Source: an uncultured bacterium (GTDB lineage: Bacteria; Fermentibacterota; Fermentibacteria; Fermentibacterales; JCC-6). From it: a stretch of DNA of 64,000 nucleotides. A model generated the notes under the pieces. That model did not search any database, was not told the origin of the DNA, and worked only from the letters and a program-made list of their open reading frames with translations. The stretch covers positions 494 through 64,493 of the forward strand of contig CAZKJG010000016.1 in assembly GCA_964553045.1 (NCBI GenBank). The letters run 5' to 3'. Numbering within the stretch: the first letter of the stretch is position 1; every line of letters begins with the position of its first letter. Position numbers and translations under genes: made by a program. This document shows, piece by piece, positions 3,552 through 64,000 of the stretch.

Positions 3552-4495
3552 TCAGATGAGCGTAAGGAGGGCCGTGGCTTCGGACTCCTCCAGGCGGATT
3601 CTGAGAAGGTAGACACCCGATGGGCATCTGGTTCCGTCGCCCGACATTCCGTTCCAGCTCAGGCAGACGGTCCCGGAATGGGCGAGCTCCTCCGTCATTC
3701 TCCTGACCAGGCGCCCCGAGGCGTCGTATATGCCCGCTTCGACGGTTCCCGCACCGGAAGCAGCCAACTCTACGGCGACCAGGGTGTGGAACGGGTTGGG
3801 CGAGATCCCGGTAATGGCCAGAGGCTGCTGGAGCGGTCCCCGGCCCTCTTCGACGCCCACGCCTCCGCCGTCGGTGGTGTGGACTATCACGCCGTACGGC
3901 CCCACTGCCCATCCGCTGCTGTAGTCGATGAAGAACACGGCGCTCGGCAGATGGGGCACCGCGCAGACCTGCTACGCCCAGGTGGCGCCGCCGTCCTCGG
4001 AGAAGAGTATCGCGCCCCCTGCACCTACTGTGTAGATGGATTCCGGGCTGGCGTAGAACACGTCTTCCAGGTTCATGGATGTGCCCGAGTCGCGCTCGAT
4101 CCAGCTGGAGCCTCCGTCGGAGGTGGTGAAGATGGCTCCCAGCTCCCCGACGACGCAGCCGTTCAGGGCATCGATGAAGTGGACGTCGGTGAAGGGCAGC
4201 TCCTGTTTCTGGTACAGCTGGGTCGTCCAGGTCTCGCCTCCATCAGAGCTGTGTACTATTGCCCTCTCGGCCCCCGCGGGGTAGGTGTTCTTGCCGCCGG
4301 CCATCCAGCCGCTGTCTGAGTCGATGAAGTGCAGTCCGGAGAAGTTCGTGGATATGCCGGGCTCCTGCTCCTCCCAGCTCTGGCCTCCATCGGAGGTGTG
4401 GAGCACGGTACCCCAGGAGCCCACAGCCCATCCTTCCTGGGAGCTTGCAAAGAAAACGTCTGCCAGGAATGCGTCGGTGCCGGATTCCTGCATCT
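3552..4495 (-). pseudogene. BNR/Ycf48-like repeat protein with T9SS C-terminal sorting domain, interrupted by an in-frame TAG; N-terminus unclear
   Basis: Repeated S-x-D-G-G-x-[ST]-W BNR motifs (SDGGQSWEE, SDGGETWTT, SDGGSSWIE, EDGGATWA, TDGGGVG). C-terminal SPNPF...GVYLLRIRL T9SS-type CTD. In-frame TAG at 3972-3974 joins two ORFs in the same frame. No signal peptide at the first in-frame ATG. Confidence 0.5.
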
Positions 4496-4580
4496 CCCAC
4501 CCGGCTGCCGCGTATGAGAAGGAGGCTATCGTCTTTGAGTGCAGCGTAATGGGCAACCGTCGAGGTGAGAGACTGAGCAG

Positions 4581-19060: not shown

Positions 19061-19564
19061 CTACATGAACCTCTCGAAGCGGTCGGCTGCCGCGCCGCAG
19101 ACGGGACACTTGCCCGGCGGGTCCGCCCGGGCGCAGAGGTAGCCGCAGACCCGACAGCGGTGGACCGGCAGCGCAAGCTCGCCGGATACCCTCTCCGGAC
19201 CGACCGATTCCCTGTTCTGCGGCCGTTGGGACGGGTCGGCCGGTCTCCTCTCCGGAACCGCCCCCAGCTCCTTCTCGCCGTCGCGGACCTCGTCGGAGAC
19301 GTACAGCCCGCAGTAGCAGGCGCCGTGCTCCACCAGGTCGGCGTCGCGGTAGTCGCAGGGGCAGATGATGTCCAGATCGTTGTCCCGCTCGCCGTCGGCC
19401 AGCCTGCAGGGGCATGCCATGTAGCCGTAGCGGTCGATGTTGGTGACCAGGCCCTCCATGAGCTGCATCGTGAACTCCCGGTCGGGGTTGAGGTTGTAGC
19501 CACCTTTCGCGGCCTGCTTCTTCAGCTTGTCGTAGAGCTTCTCGGCCCGTTTCCCGACGCTCAC
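19061..19564 (-). CDS. Ferredoxin:thioredoxin reductase catalytic-subunit-like protein fused to a C-terminal rubredoxin domain (FDR-like)
   Basis: FTR-B-like CPC...CPC/CYC motifs (YMACPCR, ICPCDYR, ACYCGLY). C-terminal CRVCGY...CPVCG rubredoxin knuckles. GTG start overlaps the glutaredoxin stop (GTGA). Confidence 0.75.
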   Translation of the reverse strand: MSVGKRAEKLYDKLKKQAAKGGYNLNPDREFTMQLMEGLVTNIDRYGYMACPCRLADGERDNDLDIICPCDYRDADLVEHGACYCGLYVSDEVRDGEKELGAVPERRPADPSQRPQNRESVGPERVSGELALPVHRCRVCGYLCARADPPGKCPVCGAAADRFERFM

Positions 19565-19848
19565 TGGTCCACCCCCAGAGCTTCCCGCAGCCTTTCGGGG
19601 TTGTGCCCGGCCACAACGGTTTCGCCATCCACCACGACGGTTGGGAAGCTTCCCACCGGGTTGTGCCTCTTCATCTCCTCGACGGCCTCGGTCCTCTCGC
19701 TGCCGCTGCGCCTGTCCACGTAGACGTAGGAGTACTCCACCCCCAGGCTGTCCAGCAGCTTCCTTGTCTTGCGGCACCAGACGCAGGTGCTCAGGGCGAA
19801 GAGCACTACCTTGCCCCTGTCCTCCCCGTCCACATGTGTCAGGTCCAT
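19561..19848 (-). CDS. Glutaredoxin/NrdH-like thioredoxin-fold protein
   Basis: About 95 aa with STCVWC (CxxC) active site and a glutaredoxin-like layout. Confidence 0.7.
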   Translation of the reverse strand: MDLTHVDGEDRGKVVLFALSTCVWCRKTRKLLDSLGVEYSYVYVDRRSGSERTEAVEEMKRHNPVGSFPTVVVDGETVVAGHNPERLREALGVDQ

Positions 19849-20099
19849 GCACGACCTCCAGTCGGGTTGGCCATTTTCGGTCTTGAGACTCCCTCCACCC
19901 TAATCCCTGCAGGGGGGTTCGGCAAGGAAATCTGGTGAATCGTCTATTCGGCGCATAGCACGAATACCTCGGAAGGGAGATAGCATACGGCACGACATAC
20001 AGAGGCTCCGGCCGTTGACGGAAAAGGGTTCTGCAGGGACGGGCCGCATCCCCCCGAAGAGATGGCCGGTGTCACGGAAACCGCCGACAGACGAATGTC

Positions 20100-20891
20100 C
20101 TATTCGCTTCGGATCAGGTATCCGGCGGTGACCTCGGGGTGCCTGTATCCGTAGCGTCTTTCCGGCCTTCTGCCCTTGTAGATGGCATGCTCTGGGCAGA
20201 AGCTGATGCAGGCGTTGCAGCCCTCGCAACGGTTGTGCCAGACCGGTCTTCCCATTTCGTCGCGCGTGATGTCGCCGGATGGGCAGATTTTCACGCACAA
20301 ACCGCACGACGTGCAGTTCTCGTTTGCGTGGAAGGCGTTGTCCGCCTTGCGTATTCCCTTGGAGAACAGGGGGTGAACCAGCCTGGCCAGCAGTCCGTAG
20401 AGGCCGCCCCCCCTTCCCTCCAGCATGGTTATTCGGTCGATAACGCCGCCGGCGATGGATTGCAGCGAGCTTTCCGCCCGCTCCAGCTTTGCAGATGCCT
20501 TGGGCCCTGGCTCCTGAGGCTTCTCCCGCAGCCTGGAGTTGGAGGGCATTACGACGTCGAAAAGGGCGTCCGGGCGCTGTCCCGCCGCCGCGGCCAGCTT
20601 CTCGAACTGGCGCAGAGCGTTTCCGTAAACGCCGGCATGGGTGGCAACGCAGAAGAGGTAGTCGGCTTCGATGCCTTCCAGCCCCTCCATCAGCTCCCCG
20701 ACCAGTACCGGCATGCCGCCGGCGTAGACGGGGAAGGCAAAGCCCACAACGTTGTCCTCGACATGGATTGCCTGATCCCGCAGGCGATCGGTTATGTGCA
20801 CCAGCCTGGTGTCCCCGATCCTGTCTCCGATGCTCCGGGCAGCGTGGTAGCTGTTGCCGGTTCCGCTGAACCAGTATATCGTGCTGCCCAT
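20100..20891 (-). CDS. EFR1-family protein: flavodoxin-like domain fused to 2x[4Fe-4S] ferredoxin
   Basis: N-terminal IYWFSGTGNS flavodoxin-like FMN loop. C-terminal CTSCGLCVKICP and CEGCNACISFCP. Confidence 0.75.
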   Translation of the reverse strand: MGSTIYWFSGTGNSYHAARSIGDRIGDTRLVHITDRLRDQAIHVEDNVVGFAFPVYAGGMPVLVGELMEGLEGIEADYLFCVATHAGVYGNALRQFEKLAAAAGQRPDALFDVVMPSNSRLREKPQEPGPKASAKLERAESSLQSIAGGVIDRITMLEGRGGGLYGLLARLVHPLFSKGIRKADNAFHANENCTSCGLCVKICPSGDITRDEMGRPVWHNRCEGCNACISFCPEHAIYKGRRPERRYGYRHPEVTAGYLIRSE

Positions 20892-20913: not shown

Positions 20914-21795
20914 CTACTCTTCCGACCTGTTCTCTTCGTCGTCCGGCTCCACGTGCACCACCGCTTCCAGTATATCACATTCGCACTCCTCGACCTTCTC
21001 CTGGACGGCGGTGGCGATGCGGTGTCCCTGGGCTACGGACAGGTCAGGGTCCACCAGAATGTGGACGTCCAGCGTCAGCGCTCCGGCCATCTTCCTGACC
21101 CTGAGCCTGTGCGATGAATGAACCCCCGGGACCCCGTCGATGGTTCGTCCTATCCGTCGGACCATCTTTCTCCCCGGTGCCCGGTCGATGAGCTCTTCCA
21201 CAGCGTCCTTTACCAGCTTCACGGCGGTCACGGCCAGAAATGCCGCCAGCAGGGCGGCGGCGAACCGGTCGAGGAAAGCCCACCTCTGGCCCCCGAAGGT
21301 GGCCCCGGCGATTCCGGCGGCCGCGGCCAGGGAGGTGAAGGCGTCTGTCCTGTGGTGCCAGGCGTTGGCCACAACCGAGGGGTCCCTGGCTTTCCGCCCC
21401 ACTCTCTTCGTGACATGGTACAGGAGCTCCTTGGGAACCATCGAGCCCACGGCCACCAGCAGCGGCAGCAGGCCCACCTTGATTTGGTGGGGCTGTCCGT
21501 AGGAAGCTATGGCGTCGTAGGTGATCCAGCCGGCCGTGACCAGGAGCGAGACACCCACCACTATGGAGACCAGGGTGGCCACCCTCCTGTGTCCGTAGTG
21601 GTGGTGGTCGTCGGCCGGCCGTCCCGAGAATCGCAGACCCAGCAGCACAGTCGCGTCGCTGGCCAGGTCCGACACCGAGTGCAGTCCGTCGGCAAGCAGG
21701 GCCCGAGCCCCGGTAAGCAGGCCCACGGTTACCTTGACGGCCGCCAGTCCGACATTCGTGGCCAGTCCCAGGAGGGTAACTTTCTTCGGGGTCAT
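20914..21795 (-). CDS. Cation diffusion facilitator (CDF) family transporter
   Basis: CDF signature (LLADGLHSVSDL...HYGHRR), six TMS, C-terminal cytoplasmic domain. Confidence 0.85.
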   Translation of the reverse strand: MTPKKVTLLGLATNVGLAAVKVTVGLLTGARALLADGLHSVSDLASDATVLLGLRFSGRPADDHHHYGHRRVATLVSIVVGVSLLVTAGWITYDAIASYGQPHQIKVGLLPLLVAVGSMVPKELLYHVTKRVGRKARDPSVVANAWHHRTDAFTSLAAAAGIAGATFGGQRWAFLDRFAAALLAAFLAVTAVKLVKDAVEELIDRAPGRKMVRRIGRTIDGVPGVHSSHRLRVRKMAGALTLDVHILVDPDLSVAQGHRIATAVQEKVEECECDILEAVVHVEPDDEENRSEE

Positions 21796-38683: not shown

Positions 38684-40642
38684 TCAGCGGCCGCCCGTGA
38701 TTACCTCCAGAACCTCGGGGAAGTCAACTCCCAGCTCCTCGAGCTTCTCCCGCCCGGGTACGCCGTCTTCGCTCCATCCCCTAAGCCGGTAGAGGGCGTC
38801 GAGGAGTCGGTTGTAGCGGTCTTCCCTGTGCTTCCGCAGGGCCGAGACCTTCTCTTCTGCGGACATGGATTCGGGGTCCGTTCCTGCCTCTTCGCGAAGC
38901 TGGCTGTCGTACATGTCCCTTCGGGTCTCGTACTCGTCCTCGGTCACCGGGCCCTGGGCACGATAGGGAAGTGAATCGTGCTCCCTGGTACCGTAGCCCA
39001 TTCGCAGGTCGAAAACCCTCCGGAAGTTGTGAACCCTCTCGGACATCTCCAGGAGGCTGCCCGGAGTCTGGCCGCTGCCGGTAACGCCCTCGAAGAGGCC
39101 GCAGTAGCTGAGCACCCTTGCCGGGGCCTTTTCCGGATCAAGTGAGTTCCAGGGAAGGCCGCACAGGCCGCAGAGGCTGAACCAGCTGTTCCAGAGCTGA
39201 GAGCTGTGGAGGGCCTCGGCCAGTTCTTCGGGCCCGCGTGGGCCATCCTTCCCGACCCCGGTGAGCATCGGCCAGCGGCCATCCTGCAGGTCGCCACCTG
39301 CACCGGCGCCGAGGGCGGCCTGATGGACGAGCGATTCCCCGGTTGCGACCTGAGGCAGTTCCAGTCCCTTGCTCTCCATTCCGATGTCTTCCAGCAGCTC
39401 CCCATCGGCGTCGTAGTGCTCCTCGAAGTAGTACTTCATGAAGCGGATGCCCTTGCCCGCAATGCGTCCGAAGCCCCTGGACTCCGCCACGGCATGCAGC
39501 AGGGCGAGGGCGGCACCGTCGTTTCCGAATTCGAGCTTCAGGCCGTCGGTCTTCTCCGCGTCGAGTATGCCCTGCTCGAAGCACTCCATGACAAAGGCTG
39601 TCGAGGTGGCGAAGGAGATGGGATCGATTCCGTAGGTTCCGCAGTAGAAGCAGTACTCCATGACGAAGTCGGGATCGAAGATGCCCATGTTGGAGGCTCC
39701 GGCGACCACTCCGTAGTCCGGGCCCTCCACAGAGACGGGTTCCCCTGCGTAGGGGCCGGTCTGCGGCTCGAAGCCCGAGACCGACTTTCGGCAGGATAGC
39801 CCGCAACCCAGCCAGCAGGCGTCTGTACTTCCGGTGTCGAAGTATGGGGAGAGGGATTCTTCGTACAGGCACTTCGCGTCTTCGTGGCCGTATGCGCGGC
39901 AGTTGGCCACCGGAAGGAGGTTGGCTTCGCTCATGCTCTCGATGAGTCGGGCGGTTCCCGAACGTCGCAGACCTCCCTGAACGCCCCGGGAGAATACGAT
40001 ATCGCGTGTGATCTCCATACCGGCTCTGCGGATCGCGTCCGCGTCGCCGGGCGCACCGGGATGGTCGTGAAGGCTCAGGGCTTCGGTGGGGCAGACCTCC
40101 ACGCATATCCCGCAGCCGGTACAATACCCGTCATCCGGCCGGGGAATGCTCAGCCTGCGCTCGGAGCCGCTCCCGGCGAAGCTGATGACTTCCTGTCCGT
40201 TAAGCCGGCGACAGGCCTGGACGCAGAGACCGCAGAGAATGCAGGCCCTCGGGTTGCAGTCAGCCCCGCGAACTGCGGGGCGCGGCCGCTGTATTCCGTG
40301 GGAGCGCGCCATCTCGCGAATGGCCTCGACCTTTGGCCATCGGGCGTAGAGCAGCTCCAGCACATTCCTGCGGTGCGACACCACTCTTTCCGAGGAGGTA
40401 TCCACCTTCAGATCGCTGCGAACGGGGAAGGTGCAGGAGGCGACCAGCCGCCTGCCGCCGCCGTCATCCACCTCGACCATGCACAGCCGGCAGGCGCCGT
40501 AGGGCTCCGTCAGGGGGCTTCCGCAGAGCGCGGGTATTCCGACCCCGGCCATCTCCGCCGCCTCCATGACCGTGGTATCACGCGCCACCTCGACCACTTC
40601 GCCTTCCAGATCGACCTTGAACATCTCCCGATCACCCATCAT
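38684..40642 (-). CDS. Chimeric subunit: HydA/NuoG-like N-terminal Fe-S module ([2Fe-2S] plus 2x[4Fe-4S]) fused to AOR catalytic domains 2-3
   Basis: N-terminus: 2Fe-2S ferredoxin fold (CGSPLTEPYGACRLCMV), CILCGLCVQAC, CTGCGICVEVCP. C-terminus: AOR-family motifs CWLGCGLSC ([4Fe-4S] ligands) and GIDPISFATSTAFVMECFEQGIL (the AOR D.IS.G..A.AMEL.E.G pterin-domain motif). ATGATGA start/stop overlap with the upstream gene. Confidence 0.8.
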   Translation of the reverse strand: MMGDREMFKVDLEGEVVEVARDTTVMEAAEMAGVGIPALCGSPLTEPYGACRLCMVEVDDGGGRRLVASCTFPVRSDLKVDTSSERVVSHRRNVLELLYARWPKVEAIREMARSHGIQRPRPAVRGADCNPRACILCGLCVQACRRLNGQEVISFAGSGSERRLSIPRPDDGYCTGCGICVEVCPTEALSLHDHPGAPGDADAIRRAGMEITRDIVFSRGVQGGLRRSGTARLIESMSEANLLPVANCRAYGHEDAKCLYEESLSPYFDTGSTDACWLGCGLSCRKSVSGFEPQTGPYAGEPVSVEGPDYGVVAGASNMGIFDPDFVMEYCFYCGTYGIDPISFATSTAFVMECFEQGILDAEKTDGLKLEFGNDGAALALLHAVAESRGFGRIAGKGIRFMKYYFEEHYDADGELLEDIGMESKGLELPQVATGESLVHQAALGAGAGGDLQDGRWPMLTGVGKDGPRGPEELAEALHSSQLWNSWFSLCGLCGLPWNSLDPEKAPARVLSYCGLFEGVTGSGQTPGSLLEMSERVHNFRRVFDLRMGYGTREHDSLPYRAQGPVTEDEYETRRDMYDSQLREEAGTDPESMSAEEKVSALRKHREDRYNRLLDALYRLRGWSEDGVPGREKLEELGVDFPEVLEVITGGR

Positions 40643-42483
40643 CGAACCTCCACGGCCTCGAAGCTGCACACATCCCTGCACATGCCGCAGCGGATACATG
40701 TTCGATCGTCTATTCGGTGGGTCTCGCCGGGCTCACCCGAGATCGCACCCACGGGGCAGACCTCGGCACAGGCCGTGCATCCCGTGCACTTTCCCTTGTC
40801 GATGCTGAACCGGATCAGCTCCGGACATTCAGCCGCCGGGCACCTGCTCTCCTCGATGTGGGCCGAGTACTCCTGGGGGAAGTTTCGGATGGTGCTCAGT
40901 ACCGGGCCTGCCGCCCGCTGTCCCAGGCCGCATATGCTGCACTCGGCCATAGTGTCTCCCAGCTCCTGCAGAAGACCTGTGTCCTCCCTGGAGCCCTCCC
41001 CCCGGATGATCCGTCCCATTACCTCCGACATGGCCGCCAGCCCCTCTCTGCAGGGGACGCACTTGCCGCAGGACTCCTCCAGCAGAAGGTCGATGCAGTA
41101 GCGGGCGTAACGGACCATGCAGGTGTCCTGGTCGATCACCGTGAGCATACCCGAGCCCATGGACACGCCGGCATCTGCCAGCGCGTCGAATTCCAGGGGC
41201 AGGTCGAGGTCGCTCTCGGGAATCAGCACGCCGGAGGGACCTCCCAGCTGCGCCGCCTTGAAGCCGGCGCTGTCCGGCGGGCCGCCGCCGATATCGAAGA
41301 TCACTTCCCTGAGCGTGATGCCCATCGGCACTTCCACCAGCCCGGTGGCGGCAACGCTTCCCGACAGCCCGAGCACCTTGGTGCCGGAGGAGTTTTCGGC
41401 GCCCTTGGAGGCGAACCACTCGGGGCCCCTTGCGATGATGGAGGGCACGCACGCCAGGGTCTCGACGTTGTTCAGAACCGTCGGCCTGCCCAGAAGGCCT
41501 TTCTCGAAGGAGGGGACATAAAGGTCATGGGCCTCGGGCGGAAGCCCGGCAAGTGCGGCCATGAGCGCCGAGGACTCGCCGCAGACGAAGGCCCCCTCGC
41601 CCCTGTGCAGATCGACATGGAAATCGAAGCCCGTACCGAGTATGTCCTCTCCCAGCAGCCCCCGGTCAGCCGCCTGCTCGATGGCCCGGCCGAGCCTCTT
41701 CAGTGCAAGGGGATACTCACGTCTGGTGTAGATGTATCCCCGTCTGGCTCCCGTGGCATAAGCGGCGATGAGCATCCCCTCGAGGATCGAATGGGGATCC
41801 GACTCGACGATCCTGGCGTCCTTGAACCCCCCCGGGTCGCTGTCTTCTGCGTTGCAGACCAGGAGGGGCTCTTCACCCGCGCTCCCGGCGGCCTCCCTGC
41901 AGCTGCGCCATTTCGCGCCCGTATGGGCTCCCCCTCCGCTCCTGCCGCGCAGCCCAGAGCTCACCACGGCTTCGACTACCTCTTCGGGCTTCATCTTGTC
42001 CAGTACCTCTGCCAGGGCACCGTATCCCCCTGCTCCCAGATAGTCGTCCATGCTCTCGGGGTCGGTCTGAGTGCGGTTCTGCAGGACGACCAGCTCCTGT
42101 TTTCCGAAGAATGGCACATCCTCGACGCGGGGACATATCTTGTCGCCGCTGCGGTACATCAGCCTCTCCACCGGCTTGCCGTCCTCGAGGTGCTGGGCGA
42201 TTATGTCCGCGAGGTCGTCGCCGCCCACCCTGGTGTAGAGGATGCCGTCGGGCTGCACAAGCACCAGCGGCCCCTCTGCACAGAAACCCAGGCATCCGCT
42301 CCGTACGACCAGGTACTCCTCGGAGAGGTCCCTCTTGATGAACTCGCCCACCAGCCTGTCGTAGAGGCCCGAAGACTGCCGGGCCCCGCAGCCGGTCCCG
42401 GTGCAGACCAGGATGGTCTTCCTGTAGTCCTGGCGCCTCCTGCGGGCCCTTTCCTGCAGATCCTTCAGCTCCTCAAGCGTCAT
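40639..42483 (-). CDS. HydB/HoxF/NuoF-like NAD(P)H-binding flavoprotein with N-terminal thioredoxin-like [2Fe-2S] and C-terminal 2x[4Fe-4S]
   Basis: GAGGYGA NAD/FMN region, FVCGESSALMAAL, ESCGKCVPCREG (N3 cluster). N-terminal CTGTGC...CLGFC. C-terminal CTGCTACAEVCP and CIRCGMCRDVC. Confidence 0.85.
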   Translation of the reverse strand: MTLEELKDLQERARRRRQDYRKTILVCTGTGCGARQSSGLYDRLVGEFIKRDLSEEYLVVRSGCLGFCAEGPLVLVQPDGILYTRVGGDDLADIIAQHLEDGKPVERLMYRSGDKICPRVEDVPFFGKQELVVLQNRTQTDPESMDDYLGAGGYGALAEVLDKMKPEEVVEAVVSSGLRGRSGGGAHTGAKWRSCREAAGSAGEEPLLVCNAEDSDPGGFKDARIVESDPHSILEGMLIAAYATGARRGYIYTRREYPLALKRLGRAIEQAADRGLLGEDILGTGFDFHVDLHRGEGAFVCGESSALMAALAGLPPEAHDLYVPSFEKGLLGRPTVLNNVETLACVPSIIARGPEWFASKGAENSSGTKVLGLSGSVAATGLVEVPMGITLREVIFDIGGGPPDSAGFKAAQLGGPSGVLIPESDLDLPLEFDALADAGVSMGSGMLTVIDQDTCMVRYARYCIDLLLEESCGKCVPCREGLAAMSEVMGRIIRGEGSREDTGLLQELGDTMAECSICGLGQRAAGPVLSTIRNFPQEYSAHIEESRCPAAECPELIRFSIDKGKCTGCTACAEVCPVGAISGEPGETHRIDDRTCIRCGMCRDVCSFEAVEVR

Positions 42484-42499
42484 GATCGCAAGCCCCTCT

Positions 42500-42964
42500 C
42501 TATTCGAAACGCGCCAGGAGGTCGCCGACCTCCGATGGTCTCACAGTACCCACAACCTCGCCGTTTACGGCTACGGCGGGGGCCAGTCCGCAGCAGCCCA
42601 GGCATCTCACCCGTTCCAGCGAGAACCTGCCGTCTTCGGTGGTCTCCCCCTCCTCAATGCCCAATTCCCTCTCCAGAGCCGACATCAGCCTGGGGGCGCC
42701 CTTCAGAAAGCAGGCGGCGCCCATGCAGACCTGGATATTCCTCTCCCCCCGGGGCTTCAGGCTGAAGCCCGAGAAAAAGGTAGCCAGATGGAAGAGCCTT
42801 CCCCGGGGTACGCCGATCAGCAGAGCCAATCTTCCCAGGGCCTGCTCGGGTATGTACCTGTAGATCTCCTGGACGTCCTGCAGCATCTCGGTGGCGTACT
42901 CGGGGTCGCGGTTCCATCTCTGCACAATGCGGTCGATTCTCTCCAGGGCATCCACCCTAATCAC
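42500..42964 (-). CDS. HydC/HoxE/NuoE-like thioredoxin-like [2Fe-2S] subunit
   Basis: CMGACFLKG...CLGCCGLAP cluster motifs. GTG start inferred near 42955-42964 at the AOR-N stop; plus or minus 9 nt uncertain. Confidence 0.7.
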   Translation of the reverse strand: MIRVDALERIDRIVQRWNRDPEYATEMLQDVQEIYRYIPEQALGRLALLIGVPRGRLFHLATFFSGFSLKPRGERNIQVCMGAACFLKGAPRLMSALERELGIEEGETTEDGRFSLERVRCLGCCGLAPAVAVNGEVVGTVRPSEVGDLLARFE

Positions 42965-43793
42965 CACCCTCGTCGCAAGGATCGCCGCCACAGGGGATTT
43001 CCTCCTCCAGGACCAGCTTGGAACATGCGGCAGGGGCCTTGACCACAAGGGCCTTAAGGCCCTTGCGCCGAAACACCGAGCCGGCTCCCCCCCGGCCACC
43101 CTGGAAGGTCCGTATCGTCCTCCCCCGGGGGTCCCACCATGAGAGGCCGAGTGAGCCGATCCAGCTGTTCTCTGCACCCCTGCCGGCGGTGACAGTGGAG
43201 AGCAGCCTGCGATCTTCGTCCTCCCCGGAGTACATCTCGAAGAGCTCACGCACCGCCAGGTGGGTGTCCGTGGAGAGTAGCGGGCTCTCTTCCAAGGTTA
43301 CCCGGCCCTCGGTGCCGTCAATTCTCACGATGACGTCCGTTTCCGCCTTGCCCACCAGCACCAGCCCGTCGAAGCCGGCGAACTTCAGCAGGGGTCCGAA
43401 ATGGCCGCCGGCGCTGGAATCCACGACCGCCCCGGTAGTGGGTGATATTGTCGCAATGGAGGAGTATCCCGCACCGGGAAACAGCGCCGTGCCTCCGAGG
43501 GGCCCGGATGATATGCATATGGGATTCCCGTCGCTGTCCCACTTTGTCTTCGGAGTGGTCTCCTGCCAGGCCATGAGGAGGTTGAATCCCCTGCCTCCGA
43601 CGAAGAGGTCCTTCATGCTCTCGGTTACGGGAACTGTCCTGAAGGAGGGCTCGGATACGTTCACTCTGAGTATCTCGCCCGTGTAGCCCTTCGCGGCCCC
43701 TCTGGGATCGTAGGAGAACTCCGCCAGGACCTTCTGAGCCTTCAGAATATCCCGGGCTGTCCGCTTCTCGGCCATGCGCATCCCCCGGTTCAT
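42957..43793 (-). CDS. AOR N-terminal domain (domain 1) as a stand-alone protein
   Basis: Collinear with the AOR N-domain: GYTGEILRVNVSE, GGRGFNLLM, GPLGGTALFPGAGYSSIATISPTTG, GGHFGPLLKFAGFDGLVLVGKAE, VTAGRGAENS. Ends after about 210-240 aa, without domains 2-3. Confidence 0.8.
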   Translation of the reverse strand: MNRGMRMAEKRTARDILKAQKVLAEFSYDPRGAAKGYTGEILRVNVSEPSFRTVPVTESMKDLFVGGRGFNLLMAWQETTPKTKWDSDGNPICISSGPLGGTALFPGAGYSSIATISPTTGAVVDSSAGGHFGPLLKFAGFDGLVLVGKAETDVIVRIDGTEGRVTLEESPLLSTDTHLAVRELFEMYSGEDEDRRLLSTVTAGRGAENSWIGSLGLSWWDPRGRTIRTFQGGRGGAGSVFRRKGLKALVVKAPAACSKLVLEEEIPCGGDPCDEGGD

Positions 43794-45200: not shown

Positions 45201-45890
45201 TCAGGCCCGTACCTGTACCTCTTCCACATAGGGCTCCACGGCCCGCGCGGTCTCCTCCAGATACCCCTTTGGATAGGGGGGGAGGTCGCGGTAGGCGTCC
45301 GACAGGGTCTTGCCGCCGCGGAATCTCTGAAGGACGTAGCGCTGGAAGGGGCCGTGCGTTCGAAGTATTCGCTCCACGCCCTCCTTGTCCACGATGCCGG
45401 GAACCATGGTGGTTCGGATCTCGTAGGCCGGAAGTGCCCTGATCATCTCCAGGCTCTCCACGACATCATCGAATCGGGCGTGACCTCCGGTGGCTTTCCC
45501 GTAGGCTCCCGGCGCGGCCTTGAGGTCCATCGCCACGTAGTCGACCAGGTCCAGGACCTCCCGGAGCCTCTTCGGCAGGGTACCGTTCGTGTCCAGCTTC
45601 ACCGGAAGGCCGGTTTCCCTGCGCACGCTGAGAATGAAATCGGACAGGCCGGGGCTGAGAAGGGGCTCACCGCCGGTTATGGAGACTCCCTCTATGAAGC
45701 CATCCCGGGCCTTGAGGCGGTCGAGGACGATGTCGGCCGACAGGGTGTACTGGTCCGCCAGGAGGTCGGGACGCACCAGCTCGGGGTTGTGGCAGAAGGG
45801 GCAGTAGAGGTTGCAGCCACCGAAGAAGACCACCGAGGCTATCTTGCCGGGGTACTCTATGAGGCTGGTTCCCTCGAAGGAGCGGATCAA
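45201..45890 (-). CDS. nrdG: Anaerobic ribonucleoside-triphosphate reductase activating protein (radical SAM)
   Basis: CNLYCPFCHN radical-SAM motif close to the N-terminus, typical NrdG size. Non-ATG start, exact start uncertain. Confidence 0.8.
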   Translation of the reverse strand: MIRSFEGTSLIEYPGKIASVVFFGGCNLYCPFCHNPELVRPDLLADQYTLSADIVLDRLKARDGFIEGVSITGGEPLLSPGLSDFILSVRRETGLPVKLDTNGTLPKRLREVLDLVDYVAMDLKAAPGAYGKATGGHARFDDVVESLEMIRALPAYEIRTTMVPGIVDKEGVERILRTHGPFQRYVLQRFRGGKTLSDAYRDLPPYPKGYLEETARAVEPYVEEVQVRA

Positions 45891-46072
45891 CTCCCGGATT
45901 CCTGCGCGGAGCCGATGCTCACGTACTCGCGCTGCTCGAACTCTTCGCGCTTGCCGCGGTTCCAGTCCTGCACCGGACGGTAGTAGCCCACTACCCTGGA
46001 GTAGACCTCGGTCCTTACGGCTTTGATCCTGGTTCCCCTGTCGATTCCCTCTTCCGAGCGCGCGTCTGCCAT
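45887..46072 (-). CDS. Small protein carrying an NrdD-type glycyl-radical motif (RVVGYYRPV...WNRGK)
   Basis: 61-aa ORF MADARSEEGIDRGTRIKAVRTEVYSRVVGYYRPVQDWNRGKREEFEQREY.... ATG one nt after the nrdD TGA, with GGAG/AGGTG upstream. Stop overlaps the nrdG start. Confidence 0.55.
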   Translation of the reverse strand: MADARSEEGIDRGTRIKAVRTEVYSRVVGYYRPVQDWNRGKREEFEQREYVSIGSAQESGS

Positions 46073-46073
46073 T

Positions 46074-48191
46074 TCAGATCTCCACCTTTCCAACCTCCAG
46101 AGAGAGGCTCCTCTGGTTGGAGCTCTCCCCGCTCTCGTGCATGACCCTGTAACTCCCCTCCTGTAGGAGGTCTCCGCCGTTCCAGACCATTTCCATGCCG
46201 TGCTTGGCTATCTCCTCGTCGGTGTGCGGGTAGGGACATACGAAGTGCTCGCCGGCTATGTAGCCGTGAACGGGGCATATGGAGAAAGTGGGAGTAAAGC
46301 TGAAGTAGGGAAGGCTGAAGTTCTCCACTACGGTTCTGGCCAGCTTTCGGACCATCTTCCAGTCCGTGATGGCCTCTCCTATGAACACGTGCACCACGGT
46401 CCCGCCGGTGAACTTGCCCTGCAGGGGGTCCTGATGGCCCAGAAGCTCGAACATGTCGGTCCTAACGTCCACCGGCAGATGGACGGAGTTGGTGTAGTAG
46501 CGGTTCGTGCCCCCCATCGCGGCAGCGTCCGGGAACCTTTCGAGGTCCTTTCGGGCCAGCCTGTAGGAGGCCCCTTCGGCCGGAGACGCCTCCAGGTTGT
46601 ACAGGTGGCCGCTCTCGTGCTGGAACTCCGTGAGCTTGTCGCGCATGAAGTCAAGGACCTCCAGAGCCCAGTCACGGGACCGGGAGTCCTCGATGCCCTG
46701 GCCTGTGAAGTTGATGCAGGCCTCGTTCATGCCGATGAGGCCGACGGTGGAAAAGTGGTTGGCCCAGTACGATCCCTGCTCGCTCTTGATGCTGCCCAGG
46801 TAGTGGCGCGTATAGGGGTAGAGTCCCCGGTCGGTCAGTTCCTCTATGAGCCCCCGCTTCAGCTCCAGCGACTCCCGCGCCGCCTCCATGACCGCGCTGA
46901 GCCGGTTGTAGAACTCGTCGTGGTTGCCGGCTGTGTAGGCTATCCTGGGCAGGTTTACGGTCACCACTCCGATGGAGCCGGTGAGCGGGTTCGACCCGAA
47001 AAGCCCGCCGCCGCGCTTTCGCAGCTCGCGGTTGTCCAGCCGAAGACGGCAGCACATGCTGCGGGCGTCGTCGGGGTCCATGTCCGAGCCCACGAAGTTG
47101 CTGAAGTAGGGGATGCCGTACTTGCCCGTCATCTCCCACATGGGGCGCAGCTCCTCGTTGTCCCAGTCGAAGTCCTCGGTAAGGTTGTAGGTGGGAATGG
47201 GGAACGTGAATATCCTCCCCTTCTCGTCACCCTCCATCATCAGGCGGGAGAATGCGCGGTTGAAGACGTTCATCTCCTCCTGGAAGTCGGCGTAGGTCAG
47301 CTCCCGCTCCCCGCCGCCCACCACCACTTTGCGTTCGGCCAGCGAAGGCGGGACCTTGAGGTCCATGGTGATGTTGGTGAACGGCGTCTGAAAGCCGACC
47401 CTCGTGGGGATGTTCACATTGAAGAGGAACTCCTGCAGACACTGCTTGACCTCGTTCTCGTTGAGGCGGTCGTAACGGATAAACGGGGCCAGCAGGGTAT
47501 CGAAGTTGGAGAACGCCTGGGCACCGGCCGCCTCCCCCTGCAGGGTGTAGAAGAAGTTCACTATCTGCCCCAGTGCCGTCCTGAGGTGCGAGGGAGGTGC
47601 CGACTCGATCTTGCCCCTGGCCCCCCGGAAGCCGTACCGAAGCAGCTCCATCAGGTCCCAGCCCACGCAGTAGGGGCCGAGTATGCCGAGGTCGTGTATG
47701 TGCATGTCGCCGTTGTCGTGGTACTCCTTTATGCGTGGTGTGTAGATCTTGCTCAGCCAGTACCTGGCCGTGATGGAGGAGGAGAGGTAGAAGTTCAGAC
47801 CCTGGAGGGAGTAGTTCATGTTGGAGTTCTCGTTTACCCTCCAGTCCTCCCGGCCGATGTAGTCGCCGACCAGGCCGTCGATTCCGCTGAATATCCGGTC
47901 GACCTCGCGGGCCTCGTTGCGCTTCTCGCGGTAGAGGATGAAGGCCCTGGCCGCGGCGGTCAGGCCCCGCAGCACAAGGGTCTCCTCGATGAAATCCTGT
48001 ATCTGCTCTACGGTGGGGACGGTGCCGCCCTTGAAGAATTCCATGTACAGTGCGGCCTCCACCTGGCCGGCCAGGTCCGCCGGGCTCTCTTCGCTCTCGC
48101 CGACCCTGAGGGCCTTCTCGATGGCCAGCTGGATCTTCCTCTTGCGGTAGGTGGCAATCCGTCCGTCACGCTTGCGTATCAACCAGTCCAT
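46074..48191 (-). CDS. nrdD: Anaerobic ribonucleoside-triphosphate reductase (class III) with ATP-cone, apparently lacking its C-terminal glycyl-radical motif
   Basis: N-terminal ATP-cone (IRKRDGRIATYRKRKIQLAIEKAL), class III RNR core, degenerate Zn site CPVH...CPYPH. The ORF ends without an RVxGY motif. Confidence 0.9.
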   Translation of the reverse strand: MDWLIRKRDGRIATYRKRKIQLAIEKALRVGESEESPADLAGQVEAALYMEFFKGGTVPTVEQIQDFIEETLVLRGLTAAARAFILYREKRNEAREVDRIFSGIDGLVGDYIGREDWRVNENSNMNYSLQGLNFYLSSSITARYWLSKIYTPRIKEYHDNGDMHIHDLGILGPYCVGWDLMELLRYGFRGARGKIESAPPSHLRTALGQIVNFFYTLQGEAAGAQAFSNFDTLLAPFIRYDRLNENEVKQCLQEFLFNVNIPTRVGFQTPFTNITMDLKVPPSLAERKVVVGGGERELTYADFQEEMNVFNRAFSRLMMEGDEKGRIFTFPIPTYNLTEDFDWDNEELRPMWEMTGKYGIPYFSNFVGSDMDPDDARSMCCRLRLDNRELRKRGGGLFGSNPLTGSIGVVTVNLPRIAYTAGNHDEFYNRLSAVMEAARESLELKRGLIEELTDRGLYPYTRHYLGSIKSEQGSYWANHFSTVGLIGMNEACINFTGQGIEDSRSRDWALEVLDFMRDKLTEFQHESGHLYNLEASPAEGASYRLARKDLERFPDAAAMGGTNRYYTNSVHLPVDVRTDMFELLGHQDPLQGKFTGGTVVHVFIGEAITDWKMVRKLARTVVENFSLPYFSFTPTFSICPVHGYIAGEHFVCPYPHTDEEIAKHGMEMVWNGGDLLQEGSYRVMHESGESSNQRSLSLEVGKVEI

Positions 48192-61786: not shown

Positions 61787-62137
61787 ATGGCATCATCGGC
61801 CAAGGGAAACAGAGCGATAGGCATCGTCATCCGGCTACCCGTCAATATCACCAAGAAGGAAGAATGGGTGATAGCCACCTGTCCGGCTCTGGATGTCAAT
61901 ACTCAGGGCAGGAGCTGCGCTGAGGCCAGAAAGAACATGGAGGAGGCTCTCTCGCTATTTCTTGAGTCCTGCCTTGAGAGGGGTGTTCTCAACGAGGTGC
62001 TCAGAGGTGCCGGATTCACAAAAGTAGAGAGTCCTGTCCAGAACGGACCCCAGCAAGACAGCGGGTCTTTCGTGGAGGTTCCCCTGTCGCTGCTGAGAGG
62101 TAAGAAGGCCGACCGCTCGGCAAAATGCCCCGTCTGA
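61787..62137 (+). CDS. HicB-like antitoxin (UPF0150 family)
   Basis: IVIRLPVN...WVIATCPALDVNTQGRSCAEARKNMEEAL pattern of HicB-like antitoxins. 13-nt overlap with the downstream toxin-like gene. Confidence 0.6.
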   Translation: MASSAKGNRAIGIVIRLPVNITKKEEWVIATCPALDVNTQGRSCAEARKNMEEALSLFLESCLERGVLNEVLRGAGFTKVESPVQNGPQQDSGSFVEVPLSLLRGKKADRSAKCPV

Positions 62138-62388
62138 CCCCGATACACTGGAAGACCCTGGAATGTGTATTTACAAAATTCGGGTTCTGCTACAAACGCC
62201 ATAGGGACAGTCACAGAATATACGAGAAGCTCGGCAGCCCCAGACCGATCGTTAATCCCACATACGAGCAGATTCAGGTGGAGATTATCAGGGGTCCCAT
62301 GGGAACTGCAGGGATGTCCCGCAAAAAGTACTTCGAGCTGCTTGAGATCTGCTGGGATACACAGCTGCCGCCTGTTCGCAGGGTTTGA
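62125..62388 (+). CDS. HicA/YcfA-like mRNA interferase toxin
   Basis: About 87 aa with FGFCYKRHRDSHRIYEK (compare HicA GF...R..GSHR.Y). Paired with the HicB-like gene. Confidence 0.55.
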   Translation: MPRLTPIHWKTLECVFTKFGFCYKRHRDSHRIYEKLGSPRPIVNPTYEQIQVEIIRGPMGTAGMSRKKYFELLEICWDTQLPPVRRV

Positions 62389-62442
62389 TTTGACAGGCGT
62401 CAAGGACCGGGTAGTCCAATGCGCCCGGGGAAGTGTCCATGC

Positions 62443-63408
62443 CTACTGGCCGTTTCGGTGCCGCTGCACGTTCAGAGCCTTCCATCGCAGAAGCGGATGA
62501 TCCTGAATGCGCGCAGCCAATTCTGCATCTTCGGTCAGCAGGCCGGGGACGATCTCACCATGGTCCAGCAGGCGATCCAGGAACTCGGCTTCGTCAGGTG
62601 TGAATTGTGCCTGAGCAGCCATGCGCTCGCGGCAGGTCTCGACCATCTGCTTCGCCCACCCAGGCTGAAGAGATTCTCGGACGGTTATGCTCAAAACCGG
62701 CAGAAGTTGGTTCTCCAATTCGTGAGGATCGCATTCTACGTCGTCCACCGAGATGGTCCGCCAGTCGCGGCGGTTCATGGCTCCGTAGAGGATGAAGGCA
62801 AGCCGCAAGCGGCCAGGATCGAGTTTCGCGGCGGTCAACAGCCGGTGTGCATCGTACACGTCCCTGCTGGCCCGGCGTGCAAACAGCGCCGCCAGCTTGC
62901 CAGCCGCCAGTTCGTGCATATCGAGAACGGGGATACCGCTAGCGGAGTACGTGCCCACATCCGCTGAGTCCATCGATGTCATGGGCCATAGCAGGACGCG
63001 GAACATGAAATTCAGATCGACTTCCAGGTTTCCGCCACCGCCAAGGGCGCTGTCGTAACGCAAGCGCCATTTGCCGCCCGCATGGTCACTGGGTATGCGC
63101 GTCACGGACAGTTCCTCCCGCTGGCAGACGACCTGCACGGTGCTCTCGACCTTCTCTCGGTCAGCCAGCATCTCCTCTCGGTCAGCCGCGCCAACGTAGT
63201 TCAGGTCGATATCAACCGACAGGCGCGGCAGGTCGAAGCAGAACAGGTTGAGCGCGGTGCCGCCTTTCAGTGCGAAGCGAGCACCAAGCGCCGGATGTCG
63301 CTGGAACACAGTCAGGAGATTGAGCAGGTGGATGACCTTCTCCAGCACCTCCGGTCGGAAGCCAGTCGCCTCGGATTCGGCCATAAGACGTTCTCGTGAT
63401 ATTCTCAA
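62443..63408 (-). CDS. AbiEii/AbiGii-family nucleotidyltransferase toxin (type IV TA)
   Basis: ALKGGTALNLFCF...LSVDIDLNY nucleotidyltransferase motifs typical of AbiEii (DUF1814). TTGA overlap with the upstream AbiEi-like gene; alternative ATG at 63384. Confidence 0.7.
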   Translation of the reverse strand: MRISRERLMAESEATGFRPEVLEKVIHLLNLLTVFQRHPALGARFALKGGTALNLFCFDLPRLSVDIDLNYVGAADREEMLADREKVESTVQVVCQREELSVTRIPSDHAGGKWRLRYDSALGGGGNLEVDLNFMFRVLLWPMTSMDSADVGTYSASGIPVLDMHELAAGKLAALFARRASRDVYDAHRLLTAAKLDPGRLRLAFILYGAMNRRDWRTISVDDVECDPHELENQLLPVLSITVRESLQPGWAKQMVETCRERMAAQAQFTPDEAEFLDRLLDHGEIVPGLLTEDAELAARIQDHPLLRWKALNVQRHRNGQ

Positions 63409-64000
63409 ATCTCACGCTCCCACGCCCGCGTCAGCACCTTTTCGGGGACAATCAGGTTCCAGTTCGTAACCAACTGTCCTGGATTCCCTCGATCCATGTA
63501 GTGGGGTTGACGAGGGCGGGCCTCTCGCAGCCTGGCGAGCTGCCAGTCTTCCACCATGAGTTCCCCATGATGCTGTTCGAGGAAGAAGCCGACCTTTGCG
63601 ACGGTTGTGGCGTTCCGCAGGAGCAGCGCATATTCGACGATCTGCTGGATGTCGTAGTATTCCACGGACTCGGCGGAACGCCAGATCTCCTCCCAGCCAC
63701 CCCCGAGGTCTGGCCGGTCGAGCACGTCCACCAGAGACCGTTCCAGAGATGTGACCCTGATGTCGTGCCCGAGGCGGTCGACTGTCTTAACTCCAAACAG
63801 CTCCCCTGCTTCTCTACGTAGAGCCTTCTGCGGTGAGACGCGACGGAAGTGGCAGCCCCGAAAATCTTTAGGCCGCATCGCCTTATTGCTGATTATGATG
63901 TACTCGCTTGACACTGTGTATGCGCGTCCGTGCAACTGGAAGGCCGAGTGATAAGCGATCACGGCATCCTCGGCCAGCTTGGAGGCGACCAGCCATGGGT
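63405..64000 (-). CDS. AbiEi-like antitoxin/transcriptional regulator, 5' end beyond the window
   Basis: C-terminal domain pattern of AbiEi-family proteins, directly upstream of and overlapping the AbiEii gene. The ORF runs to the window edge. Confidence 0.55.
   Translation of the reverse strand, partial: PWLVASKLAEDAVIAYHSAFQLHGRAYTVSSEYIIISNKAMRPKDFRGCHFRRVSPQKALRREAGELFGVKTVDRLGHDIRVTSLERSLVDVLDRPDLGGGWEEIWRSAESVEYYDIQQIVEYALLLRNATTVAKVGFFLEQHHGELMVEDWQLARLREARPRQPHYMDRGNPGQLVTNWNLIVPEKVLTRAWEREI

Follow-up and report, generated by a model that had tools for sequence, protein, structure and literature searches.

A predicted ferredoxin:disulfide reductase-glutaredoxin gene pair in a bacterium of the Candidatus Fermentibacteraceae

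RESULTS

A fusion of an FTR-type catalytic domain and a rubredoxin-like domain

The DNA analyzed here (the window) is a 64-kb stretch from an uncultured bacterium of the Candidatus Fermentibacteraceae. On its minus strand, positions 19061 to 19564 hold an open reading frame with a GTG start codon, which was also predicted by an independent gene caller on the source contig and encodes a putative ferredoxin:disulfide (glutaredoxin) reductase (FDR) of 167 amino acids. A Pfam search revealed an FeThRed_B domain, the catalytic domain of ferredoxin:thioredoxin reductase (FTR), at residues 8 to 98 (positions 19271 to 19543, minus strand; E = 9.6e-23; 80.7 bits versus a cutoff of 22), and a C-terminal rubredoxin-like domain (RUBY_RBDX) at residues 136 to 164 (positions 19073 to 19159, minus strand; E = 5.4e-12). 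The catalytic domain carries the motifs CPC (C51 and C53), CPC (C68 and C70), and CYC (C83, Y84, and C85), and the rubredoxin motif CxxC...CxxC comprises C137, C140, C153, and C156. These seven residues of the catalytic domain and the four rubredoxin cysteines were invariant in 120 of 120 homologs.

Over its full length, the protein matched PDB entry 4TPU (E = 1.6e-55; residues 6 to 167 on residues 5 to 172 of the chain), with the rubredoxin domains of both aligned. This entry was deposited as "Rubredoxin" and represents the FDR of Methanosarcina acetivorans. By its sequence, the 167-amino-acid fusion is a clear ortholog of that enzyme. An earlier note on this DNA had proposed an FDR-type fusion with an FTR-B fold, and both the domain searches and the match to 4TPU bear this out. 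The note had also singled out the bacterial host as a distinguishing trait. More than 8000 FDR homologs exist, however, with at least 538 hits in species-representative genomes; among the best 80 species-genome hits, approximately three-quarters were bacterial and came from many phyla. Relatives in Fermentibacteria, Anaerolineae, Chloroflexi, and Deltaproteobacteria already bear the NCBI product name "ferredoxin:glutaredoxin reductase," so a bacterial FDR is nothing unusual.

A conserved glutaredoxin-reductase gene pair

Directly upstream of fdr lies grx (positions 19561 to 19848, minus strand), which starts with ATG and encodes a methanoredoxin-like protein of 95 amino acids with a glutaredoxin fold (Pfam Glutaredoxin, E = 2.8e-14). 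Its active site, CVWC, is formed by residues 22 to 25 (positions 19774 to 19785). Over its full length, it is orthologous to the PDB glutaredoxins 3NZN (E = 1.5e-31) and 5CAX (E = 2.3e-27), both with an identical STCVWC motif and both presumably of the Methanosarcina methanoredoxin type. The TGA stop codon of grx and the GTG start codon of fdr share the tetranucleotide GTGA (positions 19561 to 19564, minus strand; ccaGTGAgc). The two genes and their 4-nucleotide (nt) overlap were also called independently, in agreement with the coupling to a CxxC glutaredoxin-like gene described before, and it is from this overlap that we infer cotranscription of grx and fdr.

To place the pair in a wider context, we surveyed the best 80 species-genome FDR loci (∼60 bacterial and ∼20 archaeal), 77 of which were informative. 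Of the 77 informative loci, 70 had a Grx gene immediately preceding fdr in the same orientation, and 3 others had one no farther than ∼1 kb away. All of the redoxin partners encoded next to the FDR genes contained CxxC (73/73), and all except one contained CxWC (72/73). In the 70 adjacent loci, the distance from the grx stop codon to the point that matches residue 1 of FDR in the alignment ranged from −13 to +81 nt and was 20 nt or less in most of them. Across Bacteria and Archaea, the two genes form a conserved unit.

This conservation bears on how the two proteins work together. FDR might itself reduce a low-molecular-weight disulfide, or a broad set of proteins, with the Grx-like protein being a parallel thiol-dependent oxidoreductase and not an obligatory substrate. 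Such an arrangement would fit the use of coenzyme M as reductant of methanoredoxin in insulin reduction assays, and the name "disulfide reductase" reflects that FDR also reduces a thioredoxin. The almost universally adjacent and usually overlapping genes argue instead for a direct partnership, as does the fusion of both domains in PDB entry 7PWE, and we regard a merely parallel role as improbable. A direct partnership of FDR and the Grx-like protein remains the preferred reading.

Across the 80 loci, recurrent neighbors of the pair encoded superoxide reductase, rubrerythrin, flavodiiron protein, and NifS/NifU, and 2-oxoacid:ferredoxin oxidoreductase genes were found near it in 10 loci. The neighbors of the pair in the window (alkaline phosphatase, S9 peptidase, and a cation efflux protein of the CDF type) gave no pointer to the clients of the Grx-like protein.

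The EFR1 gene appears to belong to a neighboring gene string

Further upstream on the minus strand, as the earlier note had also described, an ATG-initiated gene (positions 20100 to 20891) encodes an EFR1-family flavodoxin-like/2x[4Fe-4S] protein of 263 amino acids. It was recognized by the NCBIfam model NF038196 ("EFR1 family ferrodoxin") at residues 5 to 246 with 191.5 bits versus a cutoff of 75 (E = 2.4e-56), and Pfam detected just two C-terminal 4Fe-4S motifs in it. The E values of the FDR, Grx, and EFR1 assignments are all far past chance. A literature search on the EFR1 family yielded nothing relevant to its function.

The EFR1 gene and grx are separated by a spacer of 251 nt (positions 19849 to 20099, minus strand), which probably represents an operon boundary. 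The spacer had no Rfam match; one subthreshold match in the searched region fell inside the EFR1 gene. Predicted RNA folding of the spacer was at the level of shuffled sequence (z = 0.30). A scan for sigma-70-like promoters and terminators found no minus-strand site at the spacer, and its single terminator-like site was a plus-strand hit within grx that did not exceed the range of shuffled sequence. On its other side, the EFR1 gene starts 23 nt past the stop codon of the CDF gene (positions 20914 to 21795).

Could the EFR1 protein nevertheless be the dedicated electron donor of FDR, so that the three proteins work as a single module? Its gene precedes grx by only 251 nt in the same orientation, its ferredoxin-like C-terminal 2x[4Fe-4S] domain makes it a chemically plausible donor, and the order EFR1 ... 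grx-fdr recurs in the three nearest relatives, L082/L083 (78% FDR identity) and L088 (88%). However, it recurs in these three only. None of the 80 species-representative loci had an EFR1 relative within 5 kb of fdr, and the Fermentibacteria loci L084 and L085 (69 to 72% FDR identity) have no EFR1 gene beside their grx-fdr pairs. Even where the order is kept, the spacer varies in length (∼540 nt in L088 and ∼775 nt in L082), and in L082/L083 a divergently transcribed pair of ArsR and Thioredoxin_3 genes intervenes between EFR1 and grx. The EFR1 gene is instead packed tightly with the upstream CDF gene, which it overlaps in L082, and in Aegiribacteria an EFR1 homolog adjoins nrdD. A query of metagenomes with the EFR1 protein returned only two loci, one of which was from a near relative. 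Moreover, FDR has a rubredoxin domain of its own for electron entry. A dedicated EFR1 donor is thus very unlikely, and the data do not support membership of EFR1 in a module with the pair. Judged by gene order, the EFR1 gene is part of the neighboring 2-hydroxyacid dehydrogenase/CDF gene string, and its adjacency to the pair is lineage-specific synteny only.

A split class III ribonucleotide reductase in the window

The window also encodes a class III ribonucleotide reductase (RNR) whose glycyl radical domain is a separate, conserved gene of 61 amino acids. The catalytic chain, NrdD, comprises 705 amino acids, and the NrdG activase is encoded in the window as well. An assembly frameshift as the origin of the nrdD stop codon was ruled out, since the small open reading frame is a conserved stand-alone gene elsewhere. 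The finger loop of NrdD reads MCCR, and Glu534 aligns to Glu495 of the Thermotoga maritima enzyme. A double-cysteine MCCR loop with this glutamate fits reduction by a thiol redoxin, and the methionine also permits formate (PMC9669993). The corresponding finger loop of methanogen NrdD3 is QCCR/A in the same classification (PMC9669993). Membership in the methanogen NrdD3/NrdH/FDR system was rejected on the basis of the MCCR loop and of the 26 kb between grx and nrdD.

We also considered that the grx-fdr pair mainly supplies reductant to this RNR, in analogy to FDR and NrdH in Methanosarcina barkeri. By its title, the study of Wei et al. (2015) describes an FDR as the electron source for the class III RNR of M. 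barkeri, and in our case NrdD and its activase are encoded together with the pair in a 64-kb window that contains no further redoxin motif, with a finger loop and Glu534 that suit a thiol redoxin. The distance of 26 kb speaks against it, as do the formate option, the dissimilarity to the NrdD3 type, and the recurrent neighbors of the pair in the 80 loci, which include no NrdD cluster and suggest functions in oxidative stress and Fe-S metabolism. On balance, RNR supply as the main role seems rather doubtful, and ferredoxin-dependent protein-disulfide reduction in general is the reading that we follow below. A broader proposal for Fermentibacteria and allied candidate phyla has the path from ferredoxin via FDR to the Grx-like protein as the physiological reductant of the split class III RNR, with EFR1-type fusions as low-potential donors to FDR and/or NrdG. 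We hold this to be a long shot; if true, it would link the ferredoxin pool straight to DNA precursor synthesis, in organisms possibly devoid of an NADPH-dependent thioredoxin system.

DISCUSSION

Predicted electron path

We consider it highly probable that grx-fdr is a two-gene operon for ferredoxin-dependent protein-disulfide reduction of the Methanosarcina kind, with EFR1 standing outside it. Of the chain from ferredoxin/flavodoxin via FDR to glutaredoxin that the earlier note had outlined, the segment from ferredoxin to FDR to Grx stands as the best reading; EFR1 as a conserved partner does not, given its absence near fdr in the surveyed loci.

Reduced ferredoxin, which is abundant in this fermentative anaerobe, would deliver single electrons to the rubredoxin Fe(Cys)4 center of FDR (Cys137, Cys140, Cys153, and Cys156). 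From there, electrons would pass to the active-site [4Fe-4S] cluster, the ligands of which are probably Cys51, Cys68, Cys70, and Cys83. The cluster would then reduce the adjacent redox-active disulfide, probably Cys53-Cys85, with Tyr84 in place of the catalytic histidine of plant FTR. These roles of the cysteines as cluster ligands or redox-active disulfide are assumed from the motif order of plant-type FTR. The resulting FDR dithiol is predicted to reduce the CVWC disulfide of the cotranslated Grx-like protein, which in turn would reduce client disulfides. The sequence of steps and the direction of electron flow are modeled on the published archaeal enzymes and on FTR, and any proteins named as clients are candidates.

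The window holds further signs of ferredoxin-based metabolism, namely, a cluster with NuoE/NuoF-like and aldehyde:ferredoxin oxidoreductase genes. According to PMC6262447, the FDRs of archaea and bacteria are Fe-S enzymes related to FTRc, and a Methanosarcina thioredoxin is reduced by FDR. Our literature search found no biochemistry for any bacterial member of the family.

A motif scan of the 64-kb window detected no credible thioredoxin or thioredoxin reductase (Trx and TrxB), and a literature search on Fermentibacter and thioredoxin retrieved no genome-level statement. The earlier note had suggested that this anaerobe lacks an NADPH-dependent thioredoxin reductase and had taken the presence of trxB as a refutation of the module. 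This is a weak argument, and the presence or absence of trxB carries little weight for FDR, because NTR and FDR coexist in Methanosarcina, both being functional (PMC6262447).

Implications

The grx-fdr system is already known, having been characterized in methanogens and being widespread in bacteria, and there is little new in it here. For annotation, fdr is best named ferredoxin:glutaredoxin (disulfide) reductase and grx the methanoredoxin-like substrate of that enzyme, with EFR1 kept out of the module. Like many uncultured anaerobic bacteria, this fermenter of the Fermentibacteraceae is predicted to drive thiol-disulfide reduction by ferredoxin, instead of or besides NADPH. Such a capacity was to be expected from published work and implies no new principle. 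Of wider interest is which proteins the bacterial Grx-like protein serves, the split class III RNR being a possible client.

Comparison with known systems

FDR shares with plant and cyanobacterial FTR (the FTRc/FTRv heterodimer) the catalytic fold and the six-cysteine arrangement of cluster and disulfide (FeThRed_B), whereas sequence similarity to the plant-type enzyme (7BZK) is weak (E = 0.0027). The catalytic histidine of the plant-type CHC motif is replaced by tyrosine in the CYC motif of FDR, a fused rubredoxin takes the place of the variable subunit, and the partner is a Grx-like protein instead of a WCGPC thioredoxin. Identity with plant-type FTRc/FTRv was rejected on the basis of the CYC motif, and no FeThRed_A gene was present among the called neighbors.

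In PDB entry 7PWE ("Ferredoxin-thioredoxin reductase subunit B," 196 amino acids), a Grx-like domain precedes an FTR-B domain (E = 7e-15 versus Grx and E = 4e-35 versus FDR, respectively), in the same order as grx-fdr. In contrast to the pair, this protein is one polypeptide, lacks a rubredoxin domain, and has CGFC instead of CVWC as its active site. A literature search for this entry retrieved neither its organism nor a publication.

The M. barkeri system (Wei et al. 2015) resembles the present one in combining FDR, a small Grx/NrdH-like redoxin, and a class III RNR, which here is encoded in the window. Our redoxin gene, however, is linked to fdr and not to an RNR operon.

Methanoredoxin and related Methanosarcina Grx-like proteins (5CAX and 3NZN) match the Grx-like protein in size (∼95 to 100 amino acids), in glutaredoxin fold, and in an identical STCVWC(K/R)KTKKLL stretch. 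Methanoredoxin of M. acetivorans is reported as an FDR substrate and described as coenzyme M dependent. To our knowledge, coenzyme M synthesis is not expected in this bacterium, and the thiol chemistry of its Grx-like protein may therefore differ from that of methanoredoxin.

The closest counterpart of the reductase is M. acetivorans FDR (4TPU; 173 versus 167 amino acids here), in which an FTR catalytic domain is likewise joined to a C-terminal rubredoxin. Both proteins have the CPC/CPC/CYC motifs and the four rubredoxin cysteines, including the same tyrosine in CYC, the significance of which was reportedly addressed by Prakash in 2018. They differ in that the M. acetivorans enzyme is archaeal and ours is bacterial, and in the linker between the domains, which here is of other sequence and slightly shorter. 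The work on M. acetivorans FDR (Kumar 2015; Prakash 2018) is cited in PMC6262447. At the Methanosarcinaceae locus L077, as in the window, a Grx-like gene is situated directly upstream of fdr.

Gene order and conservation of the grx-fdr pair

In the window, which has a G+C content of 64%, every gene described below is encoded by the minus strand. The reductase gene fdr (positions 19061 to 19564) begins with a GTG start codon and encodes a 167-aa protein (FDR), in which Pfam identified an FeThRed_B domain (residues 8 to 98; E value, 9.6e-23) and a rubredoxin-like RUBY_RBDX domain (residues 136 to 164; E value, 5.4e-12). In the sequence, its start codon overlaps the TGA stop codon of grx (19561 to 19848), coding for a 95-aa protein of the glutaredoxin fold (Grx; Pfam Glutaredoxin E value, 2.8e-14) with the active site CVWC. 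The third gene, EFR1 (20100 to 20891), encodes a 263-aa protein scoring 191.5 bits (cutoff, 75) with NCBIfam model NF038196 ("EFR1 family ferrodoxin"), while Pfam detected only two C-terminal 4Fe-4S motifs. Gene calls made independently on the corresponding public contig gave the same three genes with identical boundaries. Domain matches, motifs, gene overlap, and independent gene calls thus confirmed the sequence description of the earlier note in all details.

The note had also placed EFR1 in one redox module with FDR and Grx. When one genome per species was scanned, at least 538 FDR relatives were found, and open reading frames (ORFs) from the best 80 of these loci were compared with the three window proteins. 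Upstream sequence sufficed in 77 loci, and in 70 of these a grx-like gene was located directly upstream of fdr on the same strand, at a distance of −13 to +81 nt (measured to the position aligned with FDR residue 1); it was found within ~1 kb in 3 further loci and was missing in 4. All 73 Grx partners contained a CxxC motif (CVWC in 30, CGWC in 22, CIWC in 15, and others in 6), and 72 of them fit the pattern CxWC. No EFR1 relative was present within 5 kb of fdr in any of the 80 species loci; a small 4Fe-4S protein unrelated to EFR1 was encoded near fdr in one.

The nearest relatives by FDR identity (L088, 88%; L082/L083, 78%) share the gene order 2-hydroxyacid dehydrogenase, cation-efflux gene (CDF), EFR1, EFR1, spacer, grx, and fdr. 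Between EFR1 and grx lies a spacer of variable length, from 251 nt in the window through ~540 nt in L088 to ~775 nt in L082/L083. In the last two, it carries a divergently transcribed pair of genes, for an ArsR-family regulator and a Thioredoxin_3 protein of 77 aa (3949 to 4578 of those loci). The spacer is an insertion/deletion hot spot among these near relatives. RNA-family searches and folding of the 251-nt spacer revealed no recognizable RNA element and no stable structure, and simple promoter and terminator scans of the region gave no informative signal. In two Fermentibacteria loci with 69 to 72% FDR identity (L084 and L085), no EFR1 gene was found beside grx-fdr, and the neighbors were unrelated. 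EFR1 is instead packed against CDF, with 23 nt between them in the window and an overlap in L082. Since the locus comparisons show that grx-fdr is kept and EFR1 is not, we conclude that the functional unit is grx-fdr and that EFR1 is a neighbor through recent shared ancestry. Partnership with EFR1, the sole new element of the earlier claim, is contradicted by comparative genomics.

Distribution and genomic context of FDR

A protein search with FDR returned at least 8,000 candidates, all with E values of <1e-5, indicating a very large family. Named members, which carry the NCBI product name "ferredoxin:glutaredoxin reductase," came from Fermentibacteria, Anaerolineae, Chloroflexi, Thermoflexia, and Deltaproteobacteria. 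Counted from record titles, the best 80 of the at least 538 relatives comprised ~60 bacterial and ~20 archaeal genomes, the former including Anaerolineae, Dehalococcoidia, WOR-3, TA06, Aminicenantes, Actinomycetota, Ignavibacteria, Spirochaetaceae, Zixibacteria, Latescibacteria, Armatimonadetes, and Myxococcales, among others. Names within the 90%-identity protein clusters to which the window proteins belong identify the host as a Candidatus Fermentibacteraceae bacterium. Because the family is so widespread among Bacteria, a bacterial host, to which the note drew attention, is nothing unusual.

No single third partner of grx-fdr recurred among the 80 loci, and recurrence was weak overall. Recurrent neighbors, each confirmed by Pfam on one representative, were a heavy-metal P-type ATPase (10 loci), 2-oxoacid:ferredoxin oxidoreductase alpha and beta subunits (10 and 7), NifS and NifU (7 and 5), superoxide reductase (6), pyridine-nucleotide disulfide oxidoreductase (6), a rubrerythrin-like protein (5), a DsrE-like protein (5), and a flavodiiron-type protein (4). 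In L085, a fused MsrA/MsrB gene lies near grx-fdr. This pattern fits, but does not prove, a role of grx-fdr in general ferredoxin-fed thiol reduction and oxidative stress. As to the note's suggestion of an anaerobe lacking NADPH-dependent thioredoxin reductase, the evidence covers the 64-kb window: scanning its long reading frames for motifs revealed no credible WCxxC thioredoxin or CA[TV]CD thioredoxin reductase.

Class III ribonucleotide reductase and other features of the window

The window also encodes a class III ribonucleotide reductase (RNR). NrdD (46074 to 48191; 705 aa) matched Pfam NRDD (E value, 1.2e-171) and an ATP-cone, and is followed by an NrdG2-type activase gene, nrdG (45201 to 45890). 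Its finger loop is MCCR, and Glu534 aligns with Glu495 of Thermotoga maritima, a position occupied by Leu in Prevotella copri and Tyr in phage T4 (formate-type enzymes). With MCCR and this Glu, the enzyme has the features required to draw reducing equivalents from either formate or a thiol redoxin (PMC9669993). By the classification in the same paper, the enzyme differs from the NrdD3 type of methanogens; the grx-fdr pair does not conform to the NrdD3/NrdH operon arrangement. Because an FDR delivers electrons to the class III RNR of Methanosarcina barkeri, as stated in the title of Wei 2015, it is possible by analogy that grx-fdr feeds the RNR in the window; no synteny backs this link.

The nrdD ORF ends (TGA) before the glycyl-radical motif, which is found in a separate 61-aa ORF (45887 to 46072; motif EVYSRVVGYYRPV) that starts within TGAAATG and whose end overlaps the activase start (TTGA). 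NCBIfam model NF006126 covers the large ORF with positions 5 to 659 and the small one with positions 650 to 682; no dedicated NCBIfam model matched the latter. The best 120 of its 419 homologs were all stand-alone proteins of 47 to 88 aa, from Fermentibacteria, Aegiribacteria, Sabulitectum, and WOR-3, among others, and the order nrdD (700 to 706 aa), small ORF (56 aa), and nrdG recurred in WOR-3 and Aegiribacteria. In the RNR literature checked, "split" referred to class II RNRs only or was used in an unrelated sense. The window thus probably encodes a genuine two-chain class III RNR, which merits separate study. On an Aegiribacteria contig (L087), an EFR1-family protein (671 to 1477; 35% identity to the window EFR1; E value, 1e-48) is encoded ~400 nt upstream of a split nrdD operon. 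This single case raises the possibility that radical-SAM activases, instead of FDR, are served by flavodoxin-ferredoxin fusions of the EFR1 type.

Elsewhere, a gene string at 38684 to 43793 encodes a 278-aa protein with AFOR_N only, a NuoE-like thioredoxin-like [2Fe-2S] protein, a 614-aa NuoF-like protein, and a 671-aa fusion of Fer2_4, two 4Fe-4S motifs, and AFOR_C. The string resembles an electron-bifurcating module of the flavin-based Bfu/HydBC type, joined to a split tungsten aldehyde:ferredoxin oxidoreductase (see, for comparison, the title of PMC9304861). At 62001 to 64000, where G+C content falls to 0.59 from about 0.64 to 0.68 and several small ORFs show weaker codon-position G+C bias, the DNA may be recently acquired.

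Comparison with known ferredoxin-dependent reductases

Residues 6 to 167 of FDR aligned with PDB entry 4TPU (E value, 1.6e-55), which we take to be the ferredoxin:disulfide reductase from Methanosarcina acetivorans (Kumar et al. 2015). Across 120 aligned homologs, C51, P52, C53, C68, P69, C70, C83, Y84, and C85 were invariant, as were the rubredoxin cysteines C137, C140, C153, and C156. Going by the motif order of plant-type ferredoxin:thioredoxin reductase (FTR), C51, C68, C70, and C83 would presumably ligate the [4Fe-4S] cluster, and C53-C85 would form the redox-active disulfide. A CYC motif in place of the plant CHC motif separates FDR from plant FTR, and similarity to the chloroplast catalytic subunit (7BZK) was marginal (E value, 0.0027). 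Because Tyr replaces His and a rubredoxin is fused, FDR does not fit the plant-type FTR.

Grx matched PDB entries 3NZN (E value, 1.5e-31) and 5CAX (2.3e-27), which share its active-site stretch STCVWC(K/R)KT and are, we assume, Methanosarcina proteins of the methanoredoxin type. At the sequence level, the grx-fdr pair has every feature expected of the FDR and methanoredoxin-like families. Of the electron transfer chain proposed earlier, the course from ferredoxin through FDR to glutaredoxin agrees with the literature and the NCBI product name, where it is already stated; the EFR1 part did not hold up against comparative genomics. The finding as a whole is already known. In PDB entry 7PWE, a single chain of 196 aa, the N-terminal half matches Grx (E value, 7e-15) and the C-terminal half matches the FDR catalytic domain (4e-35), a natural fusion whose domain order equals the gene order grx, fdr in the window.
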